From: Acutalibacteraceae bacterium
GTDB lineage: Bacteria > Bacillota > Clostridia > Oscillospirales > Acutalibacteraceae
Assembly: GCA_045576915.1 (NCBI GenBank)
Contig: JAZNHK010000213.1
Location: 1-51,180, forward strand
Length of the DNA: 51,180 nucleotides
Direction of reading: 5' to 3'
The position numbers were made by a program, and so were the translations under genes. The notes beneath the pieces were generated by a model. The model worked only from the letters and a program-made list of their open reading frames with translations. It ran no database searches and was not told the origin of the DNA. This document shows positions 4,256-50,825 of this stretch, one piece after another; position 1 is the first letter of the stretch, and every line of letters begins with the position of its first letter.

Positions 4256-5839
4256 ATGTTCAGCTATAATGTAAAAAAATTCAGAAAATTAAAAAATCTT
4301 TCCCAGGAGGATTTGGCTTTAAAATTATGTGTTGTAAGGCAAACCGTGTCTAAATGGGAAAAAGGATTATCTGTACCTGATATTGAACTCTTACTGAAAA
4401 TTGCAGAAGTTTTAGATGTATCCGTAAATCAACTTTTAAACAATGAATGTATTATAAAGAAGGTAGATGAGCAAATGAAATACGATGTAATTATTATCGG
4501 AGCCGGTCCCGGAGGAATTTTTGCTGCCTATGAGCTTGTGCAACAAAAACCTGAATTGAACGTAGCTGTTTTCGAAGCCGGACATTCATTAGATAAGCGT
4601 AAATGTCCTATCGATGGAGAAAATATCAAGTCCTGTATCAACTGCAAAAGCTGTAGTATTATGAGTGGTTTTGGCGGTGCTGGTGCTTTTTCTGACGGCA
4701 AATACAATATCACCAATGATTTTGGTGGCACTTTATATGAATATATCGGCAAAAAGCATGCCTTGGATTTAATGAAATATGTTGACCAAATCAACTTAAA
4801 ATATGGTGGCGAAGGCACAAAATTATATACAACTGCCGGAACTCGCTTCAAAACTGTTTGTATTCAGAATGACCTTCATCTGCTCGATGCTTCGGTACGT
4901 CACCTTGGAACAGATATCAACTACATTGTTCTAGAGAATATGTATAAGTATCTGAAAGAAAAAGTTCAATTTTTCTTTGACACACCTGTTCTTTCTGTTG
5001 TTGATAACGAAGATTCTTATGAAATCATCTGCAAAGATGCAACTTACGAGTGCAACAAGTGTATTATTTCTGTCGGAAGAAGTGGTAGCAAATGGATGGA
5101 ATCTGTTTGTAAAGAATTGAATATCACCACTAAATCCAACCGTGTGGATATTGGTGTTCGTGTTGAATTACCTGCTTCAGTTTTTGCTCATCTTACTGAT
5201 GAGCTTTATGAAAGTAAAATTGTTTATCGTACCGAAAAATACGGAGATAAAGTCCGAACCTTCTGTATGAATCCCAAAGGTGCAGTTGTAAACGAAAACA
5301 CAAATGGTATTATTACCGTAAATGGTCACAGCTATGAAGACCCTGCCAAGCAGACAAATAACACTAACTTTGCTTTATTGGTCGCAAAACATTTCTCTGA
5401 ACCATTCAAAGATTCAAATGGTTACGGTGAATCTATAGCTCGCCTTAGCAATATGCTTGGCGGTGGCGTTATTGTACAGCGATTCGGTGATTTGATTCGT
5501 GGCCGTCGTTCTACACCAAACCGTATTGAAGAGGCATTTATCACTCCAACATTAAATGCAACTCCGGGTGATTTGAGCCTGGTGCTTCCTAAACGTATTT
5601 TAGACGGTATTATCGAAATGATTTATGCACTGGATAAAGTTGCACCGGGTACAGCTAATGAAGACACACTTCTTTATGGCGTTGAGGTAAAATTTTATAA
5701 TATGGAAGTTGAAGTTGACGAACATTTAGAGTCAAACCACAAAGGTTTATATATCATTGGCGACGGAAGTGGCATCACCCACTCTCTTTCTCATGCTTCT
5801 GCAAGCGGTGTTCACGTTGCACGTGATATTGTACGATAA
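4256..5839 (+). CDS. Fusion protein joining an N-terminal XRE-type HTH to an FAD-dependent dehydrogenase (COG2509-like)
   Basis: Residues 5-62, VKKFRKLKNLSQEDLALKLCVVRQTVSKWEKGLSVPDIELLLKIAEVLDVSVNQLL, form a classic HTH_3 domain. A Rossmann FAD motif, YDVIIIGAGPGGIFAA, follows. The C-terminal GDGSG motif is typical of this flavoprotein family. Confidence 0.7.
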   Translation: MFSYNVKKFRKLKNLSQEDLALKLCVVRQTVSKWEKGLSVPDIELLLKIAEVLDVSVNQLLNNECIIKKVDEQMKYDVIIIGAGPGGIFAAYELVQQKPELNVAVFEAGHSLDKRKCPIDGENIKSCINCKSCSIMSGFGGAGAFSDGKYNITNDFGGTLYEYIGKKHALDLMKYVDQINLKYGGEGTKLYTTAGTRFKTVCIQNDLHLLDASVRHLGTDINYIVLENMYKYLKEKVQFFFDTPVLSVVDNEDSYEIICKDATYECNKCIISVGRSGSKWMESVCKELNITTKSNRVDIGVRVELPASVFAHLTDELYESKIVYRTEKYGDKVRTFCMNPKGAVVNENTNGIITVNGHSYEDPAKQTNNTNFALLVAKHFSEPFKDSNGYGESIARLSNMLGGGVIVQRFGDLIRGRRSTPNRIEEAFITPTLNATPGDLSLVLPKRILDGIIEMIYALDKVAPGTANEDTLLYGVEVKFYNMEVEVDEHLESNHKGLYIIGDGSGITHSLSHASASGVHVARDIVR

Positions 5840-47373: not shown

Positions 47374-48687
47374 ATGGTTAAAGTTCTTAAATTCGGTGGC
47401 AGCTCTCTTGCAGATGCTGAGCAGTTCAAAAAGGTTGCCGCAATAATCAAGGCAGAGCCCGAAAGAAGATATGTTGTTGCTTCCGCTCCGGGTAAAAGAT
47501 TTTCCGACGATATCAAGGTAACAGATATGCTTTATGATTGCTACAAGCTTGTTAAAGCAAATCAGCCTATCGACGATGCTTTCAAACTTATTGAAGACCG
47601 TTACAACGGCATTATCAAAGATTTGGGTATCAAACTCTGGCTTCAGCCTGAGTTTGATAGAATCAAAAATGCAATTGTTCACCACGCAGGTCGTGACTAT
47701 ATTGCAAGCCGTGGCGAATATCTTAACTCAATGGTTCTTGCTGCATATCTTGAATATGATTTCATTGATGCTGAAGAAGGTATTTTCTTTAAAGAAAACG
47801 GTACACTTGATACAGAAAAAACAAACGAAGAGCTTACAGCAATTCTCGCAAAGCACGAACATGCAGTTATCCCCGGTTTCTATGGTGTAATGCCTAACGG
47901 AACAATCAAAACTTTCTCTCGCGGTGGTAGCGATATCACAGGCTCTATCGTAGCACGTGCAATCAAAGCAGATATCTACGAAAACTGGACAGACGTTTCA
48001 GGTATGCTTATGGCTGACCCCAGATGCGTTGAAAACCCCCAGGTTATTACAACAATCACATACAGCGAGCTTCGTGAGCTCTCATACATGGGTGCAACTG
48101 TTATGCACGAGGATGCTATTTTCCCTGTTCGTGAAATGGGTATTCCGATTAACATCAGAAACACTAATGCTCCCGAAGATGCAGGTACAATGATTGTTTC
48201 ATCTGTTGAAAGCAACAAAGTTGACACAGTTATTACAGGCGTTGCAGGTAAAAAAGGATTCTCTGTTATTGCTATCGAAAAAGATATGATGAATGCAGAG
48301 GTTGGCTTCGGCAGAACTGTTCTTGAAGTTCTTGAAAACTACAATCTTTGCTTTGAGCATCTTCCCTCAGGTATTGACACAATGTCTGTTGTTGTTAATG
48401 ATACCGATTTCCTTCCTGTTAAGGATAATGTTGTTAACGATATTATCAGAAGAACAAAGGCAGACTCCGTAACTGTTAATGGCGGTATTGCTCTTGTTGC
48501 AGTTGTTGGTAGAGGTATGGCTGGTTCAAAGGGTACTGCAGGCAGACTATTCAAAGCAATTGCAGAAAACGATATCAACATTAAAATGATTGACCAGGGT
48601 TCAAGTGAACTCAACATTATCGTTGGTATTTCTGAAGAGGATTATATCAAAACACTCAATGCAATTTACCACGAATTTGTTGGTTAA
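47374..48687 (+). CDS. lysC: Aspartate kinase
   Basis: The N-terminus is MVKVLKFGGSSLADA, and C-terminal ACT domains are present (VAVVGRGM...INIKMIDQGSSELNI). The start is set at the ATG after AGGAGAA. Confidence 0.88.
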   Translation: MVKVLKFGGSSLADAEQFKKVAAIIKAEPERRYVVASAPGKRFSDDIKVTDMLYDCYKLVKANQPIDDAFKLIEDRYNGIIKDLGIKLWLQPEFDRIKNAIVHHAGRDYIASRGEYLNSMVLAAYLEYDFIDAEEGIFFKENGTLDTEKTNEELTAILAKHEHAVIPGFYGVMPNGTIKTFSRGGSDITGSIVARAIKADIYENWTDVSGMLMADPRCVENPQVITTITYSELRELSYMGATVMHEDAIFPVREMGIPINIRNTNAPEDAGTMIVSSVESNKVDTVITGVAGKKGFSVIAIEKDMMNAEVGFGRTVLEVLENYNLCFEHLPSGIDTMSVVVNDTDFLPVKDNVVNDIIRRTKADSVTVNGGIALVAVVGRGMAGSKGTAGRLFKAIAENDINIKMIDQGSSELNIIVGISEEDYIKTLNAIYHEFVG

Positions 48688-48790: not shown

Positions 48791-50269
48791 TTATGCAAAC
48801 AATCCACCGATTAACTGAGGAATCATTTTAATGTAGGTAACAATAAGGCCGAGAATCTCTGTGAGGAAGTTTGCAACAGAACCATCAATTGTGCCGAGGG
48901 CATCTGTGGGAAGCTTTGATTCTTCATCATTCGCTTCTGCTTTTTTAGTTTTCTTGATTGCATATTCATCAATCTTTGTTACTTCCTGAGTTTCATCATC
49001 AACAACATAAGCTTCGTAAACAAGCTTACCACCATCAATATAAATGTTAGCGAAGCAACCACCTAAATCTCTTGTGGAAAGCTTAACATCTGCACATTCG
49101 TTAATGGGGTCAATGGGATTTTCATTTACTGTATATCTCTTTGTTCCTGCTGTTGAGGGAAGAATGTAAACTGCACCATCAGGATTCTTTGCGAATGTTG
49201 TACTCTGGCCATTGAATTTTTCTGTTACATAAGTAACATCTTCAACAACTGCATCGCCCTTAACCTGTTTTGTTCTGAAATACATATGGTCGTGACCGGA
49301 AAGAACAACGTCAACATCTGTCTGGTCAACTATTTCAATAATTGTTTCTCTCATAGCAAGAGTATCAGGCTTATTGATGTTTTTACCAGCAGAGTAAACT
49401 GCACGGTGCATAAGAAGGAACTTCCACTGAGCGTCAGAGTTTTTAAGGTCGTTGATAATCCAGTTTCTCTGAGCTTCAACCATAGGATACATATCGTTGG
49501 AGTTAACAACACAGAAGTGAGCGTTGCCATAATCGTAAGAATAGTAAACACCATTTACACCATTACCAGCACCTTCGCCTGCTTCAAGGTTGAACATACT
49601 TGCAAACCAACCAACGTTAAGCTTGTTAGTAATGTTACCCTCGTGGTTACCTGCAACGGGAACGAGTGTAAGGTTTGTGTTTGCTTTTTCAAATGCCTGA
49701 CCATACCAGTTCCATTCTTCGTTTGTACAATCGTTTACAAAGTCACCAAGGTTAACAACAAACTCTGCATTTTTGTTGGATTCCATAGCTGCATCCATAA
49801 CAAGAGCTGCTTTTTCAAAGTTTTCAAGGCTACTTGCCTGAACGTCTGCAATAGCAATAAATGAGAATTTCTTATCGCCATCGTCAGTAACAAATTTACC
49901 TGTTTTGCTCCAAACGCCTTCATTCAAGCTACCAACACGATAGAAGTAAGTTGTACCTGCCTCAAGACCTGAAGCAACAACCTTATGGCAATAATAATCC
50001 TTGAAAACAGTAGTATCACCAATGAATGTGTATGCATTGTTGAATGTTCCGTCAAAATCAGCTTCCTTAACAACCTGAATTGTTGTGTCGCAATGATTTT
50101 CTGTGTACCAGGTGAAGCCACGCTGTGATGTAGTATCACCATACATTGTGCAATTAACACGAAGTGTTTCATAACCTGTGCTCTCTGCAGAAACGCTTAT
50201 ACCAATGCAGCTGAAAAGCATAATAACTGCAAGTAAAGCGGCAAGAGATCTCTTTGCTGTCTTTTTCAT
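48791..50269 (-). CDS. Secreted metallophosphoesterase with a purple-acid-phosphatase-type N-terminal domain
   Basis: The signal peptide is MKKTAKRSLAALLAVIMLFSCIGISVSAES. The N-terminal domain is FN3-like (RGFTWYTE...TYFYRVGS). Motifs GDFVND, AGNHE and GHDHMYFR are present, and the C-terminal tail is hydrophobic. Confidence 0.8.
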   Translation of the reverse strand: MKKTAKRSLAALLAVIMLFSCIGISVSAESTGYETLRVNCTMYGDTTSQRGFTWYTENHCDTTIQVVKEADFDGTFNNAYTFIGDTTVFKDYYCHKVVASGLEAGTTYFYRVGSLNEGVWSKTGKFVTDDGDKKFSFIAIADVQASSLENFEKAALVMDAAMESNKNAEFVVNLGDFVNDCTNEEWNWYGQAFEKANTNLTLVPVAGNHEGNITNKLNVGWFASMFNLEAGEGAGNGVNGVYYSYDYGNAHFCVVNSNDMYPMVEAQRNWIINDLKNSDAQWKFLLMHRAVYSAGKNINKPDTLAMRETIIEIVDQTDVDVVLSGHDHMYFRTKQVKGDAVVEDVTYVTEKFNGQSTTFAKNPDGAVYILPSTAGTKRYTVNENPIDPINECADVKLSTRDLGGCFANIYIDGGKLVYEAYVVDDETQEVTKIDEYAIKKTKKAEANDEESKLPTDALGTIDGSVANFLTEILGLIVTYIKMIPQLIGGLFA

Positions 50270-50280
50270 AACTACCTCCG

Positions 50281-50560
50281 TTAGAGTGAGTGTGTTCGAA
50301 CCAAATATGCCTTAAATGCCCGAATTCACGCACCTTTGTAATTTTTTTGTCTTGTAATACGTCAGTATTGCTTCGCCAAAGAAAATCCCAAATGCACGCA
50401 AATTCGGACATTTCAGGTTCTGCGAAGTTTAATACTTGGCAATTTTGTCTGTAACAAGGCAAAACTCGCAGGAAGGCTTTCTCCTTTCAAGAGTTTTAAC
50501 GATGTTACAGGGAAAAGTGACTGTATTAAACCATATGTGGTTCGAACACACTCACTCTAA
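50281..50560. repeat. 280-bp element bounded by 23-bp perfect inverted repeats (TTAGAGTGAGTGTGTTCGAACCA). It could be an invertible promoter, a MITE or a structured leader.
   Basis: The arms are at 50281-50303 and 50538-50560, and extend to 29 bp with one mismatch. The left arm ends 1 nt from the GGAGG RBS of the 48791-50269 gene. Confidence 0.75.
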
Positions 50561-50825
50561 ACAAATTACAAATTTGGGCAGACAGTACCGCCCATTTTTA
50601 TAAATACCATTATACAACCATTTTCCTTTTATTTCAATATAAAAAGTAAATTTATAACAATTGCTAATATTGTAGTAATTTTTTTGGGTAAAAGTTATAT
50701 AAGTGATGCCAGGAATGTTACAACAACTTTATCGTTCTAAATTTTCTTATATCTTATTTTTATTTAAGAAAAAATTTGGGACAATAATGTTGCAATTATG
50801 AATAATCACGTCTGGCGACTGGTAG

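Follow-up and report, generated by a model that had tools for sequence, protein, structure and literature searches.

A probable MITE of a dispersed ruminant-gut Clostridia family lies between the promoter and the ribosome binding site of a secreted phosphoesterase gene

Results

The phosphoesterase locus and its inverted repeat

The window analysed here is the whole 51,180-nucleotide stretch of an Acutalibacteraceae contig. On its minus strand, a gene at 48791-50269 encodes a protein of 492 amino acids whose N-terminus resembles a signal peptide and which carries the Pfam domains Metallophos and Pur_ac_phosph_N, in agreement with the secreted phosphoesterase that an earlier note, made from the sequence alone, had read there. 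Exact-protein look-ups of the phosphoesterase and of the neighbouring aspartokinase gave no match, and the nearest phosphoesterase orthologues were 82-87% identical. One orthologous locus, L038, showed the same synteny as the window, with a GH38-like gene upstream and aspartokinase downstream. At the position downstream of the phosphoesterase (window 47374-48687), aspartokinase was present in the window and L038, and a SpoIID-like gene and citrate synthase were present in L039-L042.

A repeat search of the window placed two arms of 35 nt each at 50281-50315 and 50526-50560, with 91% complementarity and a spacer of 210 nt. The perfect 23-mer was found at just two places in the 51-kb window, and the number of matches expected by chance was 0 (100 shuffles). 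The earlier note had described this 23-bp perfect inverted repeat around 50281-50560, with its proximal arm beside the GGAGG of the 48791-50269 gene, and both observations held. The core of the element was refined to 274 bp with terminal inverted repeats of ~32 bp, bracketed by TA on either side, and the outermost T/A pair of the described repeat (50281/50560) is flank and lies outside the element. The features of the locus are as follows.

50284-50557, minus strand: probable MITE core, 274 bp, with its sense on the minus strand of the window and conserved termini GAGTGAGTGT...ACACTCACTC
50282-50283, no strand: gene-proximal TA, putative target-site duplication (16 of 20 full copies have a TA at either end; single TA at the L043 empty site)
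50558-50559, no strand: promoter-proximal TA, putative target-site duplication on the same basis
50526-50557, minus strand: B arm, the 5' terminal inverted repeat in sense orientation, forming helix 1 of the fold
50284-50315, minus strand: A arm, the 3' terminal inverted repeat in sense orientation, ending 4 nt (TAAC) before GGAGG
50427-50531, minus strand: internal hairpin 1 (alignment columns 30-134), nearly invariant, containing TTGTTA-N17-TATTAA (50457-50429)
50310-50417, minus strand: internal hairpin 2 (alignment columns 144-251), more variable, with five pairs changed on both sides in helices 7-8
48791-50269, minus strand: secreted metallophosphoesterase gene of purple-acid-phosphatase type, with the element within its 5' UTR
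50267-50279, minus strand: ribosome binding site (RBS) GGAGG (50275-50279) and start codon ATG (50267-50269), with cggaggtagttATG identical in five orthologues
50609-50637, minus strand: native sigma-70-type promoter TTGAAA-N17-TATAAT, 11/12 consensus, outside the element and kept in L038-L041
50575-50594, minus strand: native leader hairpin GGGCGG...CTGCCC with a T-rich run after it, downstream of the promoter and upstream of the insertion point

We do not claim an extended -10 for the native promoter, as its TG is off the canonical spacing. The orthologues also have a leader hairpin at this position, built on another stem sequence in L039-L041, and in L038-L041 it lies ~30-60 nt upstream of the RBS. 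Together with the T-rich run it may act as an attenuator or 5' stabiliser. A 14-nt inverted match (93%) was also seen between the internal stretch 50335-50348 (TTTGTAATTTTTTT) and 50559-50572 (AAACAAATTACAAA) in the flank outside the B end, and it may be due to chance.

Dispersed copies of the element

The earlier note had proposed searching with the arm for further copies and had named a MITE-like insertion as its first alternative. Many dispersed copies were found, and with their unrelated flanks, the empty orthologous sites and the filled and empty alleles described below, that alternative was borne out. The arm 20-mer had 37 occurrences, spread over 22 species-representative MAGs that all came from the ruminant gut and belonged to Acutalibacteraceae, Oscillospiraceae or 'Clostridia bacterium', with up to four contigs or copies per fragmented MAG. 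Metagenome contigs supplied nine further loci with the arm 20-mer. The family tally came to 47 copies, which represent ~30 independent sites and come from no fewer than 22 MAGs; besides the window, the 274-bp core was present at about 45 places with unrelated flanks. By BLAST, ~30 copies were full length (275-280 bp), shared 83-99.6% pairwise identity and had unrelated flanks, and there were shorter derivatives of ~160, ~75 and ~45 bp in which the termini were kept. Ten copies lay at contig ends, as would be expected if the repeat breaks assemblies. Depth over 50281-50560 was 5-20 times the flank depth in four metagenomes, and many different sequences adjoined precisely at 50281 and at 50558-50560 in metagenome contigs. 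No copies were found in viral contigs or in the plasmid and phage collections.

Two pairs of orthologous sites carried copies of unequal size: 278 bp in L008 and L028 compared with 48 bp in L035, and 160 bp in L017 compared with 75 bp in L005. The short hairpin-only forms are thus in-place internal deletions of full copies and not separate insertions. At the other extreme, L007:4363-4642 and L009:5821-6100 were identical 280-bp copies at unrelated sites in the species-level MAGs SVOI01 and JAZSIE01, which implies either very recent transposition with horizontal spread or mis-binned contigs.

The only ORF in the element is 40 codons long (window 50429-50551, minus strand), with a GTG start in the B arm. 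It has no spaced RBS, was open in 21 of 26 copies and was broken by stops, frameshifts and radical substitutions in the other five. We rejected a small-protein reading of this ORF and regard it as non-coding because of these stops, frameshifts and radical substitutions and the lack of a spaced RBS. The element has the small size, terminal inverted repeats, lack of coding capacity, dispersed copies and filled/empty polymorphism with TA by which MITEs are recognised.

TA flanked the element on both sides in 16 of the 20 full copies, often in the contexts TTA...TAA or CTA...TAG, and TTAA, CTAG and CTAA contexts were frequent at the insertion sites. This pattern would fit MITEs mobilised by IS630/Tc1-mariner elements (RUP, Nezha type), whose duplicated TA often lies within NTAN; a search for an IS630-like partner gave no candidate. 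We also looked for a parent IS by TIR-like ends 0.7-3 kb apart and by recurring ORFs near copies. Neither the ~350 kb of loci examined nor the viral, plasmid and phage collections yielded an autonomous IS with the same terminal inverted repeats or a transposase, in a setting where MAGs assemble IS elements poorly. Because no parent IS or transposase was found, we infer the mobilising enzyme: the element would be moved in trans by a transposase encoded elsewhere, most likely of IS630/Tc1-mariner type, given the terminal inverted repeats and the TA duplication.

Another repeat family, related to the first, ~157 bp long and ending in TAGAGTGGGTAAAGCGTATCCGAA...CCACTCTA, was observed at L010:5992-6148, at L043:~4478-4635 and in the B-side flank of L049, placed head to head with the element and with one TA in common. 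A different short GAGTG...CACTC hairpin occurred in tandem at L016:1186-1223. These observations suggest a superfamily of palindromic repeats, each targeting the ends of others.

Empty and filled sites

The element was absent from all five orthologous phosphoesterase loci (L038-L042), which read ...aatTAcggaggtagttATG. These empty loci retain the TTGAAA-N17-TATAAT promoter, the leader hairpin and ...TAcggaggtagttATG, whereas the window reads ...tttgtT-TA-[GAGTG...CACTC]-TA-Acggaggtagtt-ATG at the insertion. Flank-matching contigs of three of the four metagenomes and of one metatranscriptome skipped the segment at 50281 and carried L038-type sequence. As the orthologues and the metagenome contigs are empty, the segment arrived later in the lineage of the window, and the native promoter lies outside the repeat. 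The comparison shows that in this lineage the element entered a TA lying 2-3 nt before the Shine-Dalgarno sequence, downstream of the promoter and the leader hairpin, and it consequently now makes up most of the 5' UTR.

A second comparison was provided by the L043 locus. In run X54, a contig at flank depth lacked exactly 276 nt, the core and one TA, with a 2-nt overlap, and runs X56 and X58 showed the same empty site with a single TA, ...CACTC-TA-GGGTGAAAGG. Runs X49, X50 and X55 carried the filled allele at this locus, and the flanks were ~99-100% identical across the filled and empty runs. The filled/empty pattern with TA duplication at the L043 locus shows recent mobility. The TA duplication is formally ambiguous because the ends of the element are palindromic, and insertion 3' of TA by an element that itself ends in TA fits equally well.

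The L043 site also gave the only pair of copies in opposite orientations. L029:1-162 and L043:4631-4913 occupy one and the same TA, their flanks match at 99% identity over 1369 nt, and the arm adjoining the gene is A in L043 and B in L029. The L029 contig begins inside the repeat, and the site is polymorphic for filled and empty alleles. The arm of L029 was swapped in its entirety, as far as 12 nt from the tip; re-insertion accounts for this better than a crossover inside the repeat would, and the L029 junction was missing from all eight runs that contain the locus. Site-specific inversion is a less likely cause here than an assembly artefact or an independent re-insertion at a hot spot. The six other orthologous site pairs shared orientation. 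We found no strand-change joints in 12 DNA runs, which were examined as assembled contigs rather than reads and did not include the own strain of the window. Public runs contained at most 18% of the words of the window locus, mostly from the repeat, and at most 10% of the words of the gene, and none of them carried the window strain at near identity.

Orientation and placement of the copies

Counting independent sites, and defining sense by the gene of the window, all 16 copies of at least 150 bp between co-directional ORFs were in sense orientation and 0 were antisense. The A (downstream) end lay within ~20 nt of the start codon at no fewer than 11 independent sites, compared with one for the B end, and it was usually 0-5 nt from GGTGA or GGAGG. 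The B (upstream) end often overlapped the preceding stop codon: TA and the first G of the element recreate TAG, and TTA-GAG-TGA provides a stop in a second frame. Targeting of TIR-like sequence is suggested, since the RBS-like flank TA-GGTGA resembles the element terminus TA-GAGTGA and some copies abut the terminus of the related 157-bp repeat. We also considered an antisense-orientation terminator as the cause of the orientation bias and rejected it, as there was no terminator-like site on either strand of the element.

Fold, covariation and transcription

On the minus, gene-sense strand, the element was predicted to fold into a three-way junction with an outer stem of 35 bp and two hairpins of ~100 nt (MFE -117.6 kcal/mol, z-score -10.3). 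The internal stem CCGAATT/AATTCGG that the earlier note had pointed out is part of one of these hairpins. Across 20 aligned copies, 98.3% of structure cells were paired on the sense strand compared with 91.6% on the antisense strand, and the sense strand had the lower MFE in 17 of the 20. Eight pairs were changed on both sides, compared with 3.3 ± 1.3 in shuffles (0 of 500 reached eight) and one to two in slid controls. There were 24 pair sites with G-U and seven with A-C on the sense strand (p = 0.003, from copies that are related to one another). The G-U count could be inflated by strand-biased mutation, and compensation could be mimicked by palindrome-templated repair.

Metatranscriptome contigs contained the element, and one contig of 1410 nt spanned a whole copy and both flanks, with DNA carry-over possible. 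The search of Rfam 15 gave no match near the gathering score, with best scores of 10-23 bits against 38-195. The earlier note had offered a structured 5' leader or ncRNA as its second alternative, with a check for known ncRNAs and riboswitches in Rfam. That check returned noise only, and the element is absent from the orthologous leaders; the location in the 5' UTR, the metatranscriptome contigs and the covariation of the fold agree with a structured leader, but the structure belongs to a mobile repeat and is not a conserved leader of this gene.

The promoter-like motif TTGTTA-N17-TATTAA that the same note had placed inside the segment is present and points at the gene. It did not vary among the 26 full copies. 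However, it is embedded in the conserved stem of hairpin 1 and matches only 8/12 of the consensus, below the threshold of the promoter scan, which detected no site inside the segment. An internal promoter at this motif is no more than possible.

In partition-function folding, P(unpaired) of GGAGG was 0.39 in the filled leader, compared with 0.8-1.0 in natural and in silico empty leaders, and the outer stem is predicted to extend into part of the Shine-Dalgarno sequence. Transcription from the native promoter, which would still drive the gene, would pass through a 274-nt structure ending 4 nt before the Shine-Dalgarno sequence (TA, then AC), and the transcript would carry a very stable three-way junction just before the RBS. 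Correia elements can undergo RNase III cleavage, and ERIC and BOX elements have orientation-dependent effects on mRNA (PMC2229807; PMC3049150). By analogy with them, the likely effect of the insertion is altered mRNA processing, stability or RBS access, or a modest change in translation.

Discussion

The segment is very probably one copy of a small, non-coding and recently mobile MITE family that is present in many ruminant-gut Clostridia, and that in this lineage landed between a native promoter and its RBS. The family is new and is of the Correia/RUP kind. Across the family, selection or a strand-specific insertion mechanism would keep the sense orientation and the intact sense-strand fold, and the family-level biases reflect either selection on the sense transcript or such an insertion mechanism.

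The segment could instead be a functional cis-acting RNA or regulatory module that is only incidentally mobile, kept since the sense-strand three-way junction or the internal promoter controls the downstream gene. The sense-only orientation, the A end beside the RBS at 11 or more independent sites, the covariation and G-U excess on the sense strand and the invariant hairpin 1, -35/-10-like hexamers included, all suit this reading, as do the presence of the element in transcript contigs and the outer stem predicted to reach into the Shine-Dalgarno sequence. The G-U excess may nevertheless be strand-biased mutation, the compensatory changes may arise by template switching within the palindrome, and the transcript contigs have no strand information and may stem from DNA carried over into RNA libraries. 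Moreover, in-place decay at orthologous sites has left forms of 160, 75 and 45 bp, the orthologous phosphoesterase genes have no element upstream of them, the downstream genes are mutually unrelated and Rfam holds no such family. We consider this explanation unlikely.

A MITE under neutral decay would not be expected to show strict sense orientation, RBS adjacency or compensatory changes. The element may instead be a mobile, orientation-specific leader or intercistronic module that targets the TA directly upstream of Shine-Dalgarno-like GGTGA or GGAGG, which resemble its own GAGTGA terminus, and that is kept as its sense-strand junction or invariant internal -35/-10-like motif sets the expression of the downstream gene. 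We give this reading little weight, though some. A variant of it, in which copies can also flip, is hinted at by the L029/L043 pair and is less likely.

Mobilisation of the palindrome as single-stranded DNA, REPIN-RAYT-like or as an IS200/IS605-derived PATE, would involve a Y1/HUH transposase that recognises hairpins on one strand, and insertion 3' of TA with no real duplication, and the filled/empty comparison fits it equally well. In Firmicutes, replication direction correlates with gene direction, and an orientation bias as strong as the one observed would then follow the direction of replication. This mode of movement would also suit a structure that is better on one strand (24 G-U against seven A-C sites), two large subterminal hairpins kept by compensatory change, and related short hairpin repeats in tandem as in BIME/REP clusters. 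However, terminal inverted repeats that are long, near-perfect and mutually pairing, with a TA at either side, characterise DDE-transposon MITEs such as Correia and RUP (PMC2229807) rather than IS200/IS605 ends. Gene-strand bias alone would give ~80:20, which is less extreme than the observed 16:0, and the surroundings of the copies showed no Y1 transposase. Movement of this kind is quite improbable.

The headline of the earlier note was a phase-variable invertible promoter, in which a site-specific recombinase acting on the 23-35-bp repeats would flip the segment and turn its internal promoter toward or away from the phosphoesterase gene. The geometry of such repeats around ~210 bp beside a secreted-protein gene, the weak but invariant TTGTTA-N17-TATTAA pointing at the gene and the L029/L043 pair fit inversion, but it is highly improbable given the absence of the segment from the five orthologous loci and related metagenome strains, the strong conserved promoter outside it, the single orientation between co-directional genes where a mixture would be expected, the shared orientation of the other site pairs and the lack of strand-switch joints. 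The earlier note had itself taken many dispersed copies as the mark of a MITE, and because such copies were found the inversion reading fails.

Among known systems, the MITE family described here resembles the Correia/NEMIS elements of Neisseria in being non-coding, with terminal inverted repeats of ~24-35 bp, TA termini as the target-site duplication and size variants that differ by an internal segment (PMC2229807; PMC3049150). Correia elements are also often co-transcribed with their neighbours as long stem-loops, and they can lie in 5' UTRs and affect expression or be cut by RNase III (PMC2229807; PMC3049150). They differ in phylum, in size (107-155 bp compared with 274 bp) and in forming a single hairpin rather than a three-way junction, and they have no sequence similarity to our element. 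For its part, our element has a strict sense bias and prefers TA just upstream of an RBS, and an IHF site or outward promoter in it is at most putative.

The RUP element of pneumococcus is, like ours, a Firmicutes MITE with terminal inverted repeats and TA insertion; mobilisation by an IS630-family transposase is proposed for both and is attributed to IS630-Spn1 in RUP (PMC2229807; PMC3049150). RUP is 107 bp, has terminal inverted repeats that match a known IS and tends to enter IS elements, whereas our element, for which the search gave no parent IS, goes into RBS-proximal TA sites and the termini of a related repeat.

ERIC/IRU and BOX are also transcribed intergenic palindromes inside operons with an orientation-dependent effect on mRNA (PMC2229807; PMC3049150), but ERIC copies are found either way round and BOX is built of modules (A-B-C), and our element has a single fixed architecture in sense only. 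REP/BIME and REPIN-RAYT share with it extragenic palindromes that are sometimes in tandem, compensatory upkeep of hairpins and a position between a stop codon and the next gene. REPs are GC-rich units of ~35 nt that go together with a Y1 transposase gene; our element is 274 bp and AT-rich, with long terminal inverted repeats and TA ends, and no RAYT was found.

Invertons of the PhaseFinder type have short inverted repeats around a few hundred bp beside a surface or secreted protein gene (PMC11892184; PMC11602134). In contrast to them, our element is present or absent rather than flipped, occurs in many copies and leaves the promoter outside, with no orientation mixture detected. MITEs with terminal inverted repeats of 20-35 bp beside surface-protein genes mimic invertons in predictors based on sequence only or on inverted repeats, and empty orthologous sites, dispersed copies and a promoter outside the repeat tell the two apart.

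The family has been recently active in abundant uncultured Clostridia of the rumen and hindgut, where it breaks MAG assemblies. Through strain-level presence or absence in 5' UTRs and operon junctions it may contribute to differences in expression between strains. The insertion upstream of the phosphoesterase gene is ordinary in itself, and the part of note is the family-level biases: the strict sense orientation, the RBS-proximal targeting and the upkeep of the sense-strand fold are unusual and bear on the ways in which operons tolerate small repeats or make use of them.
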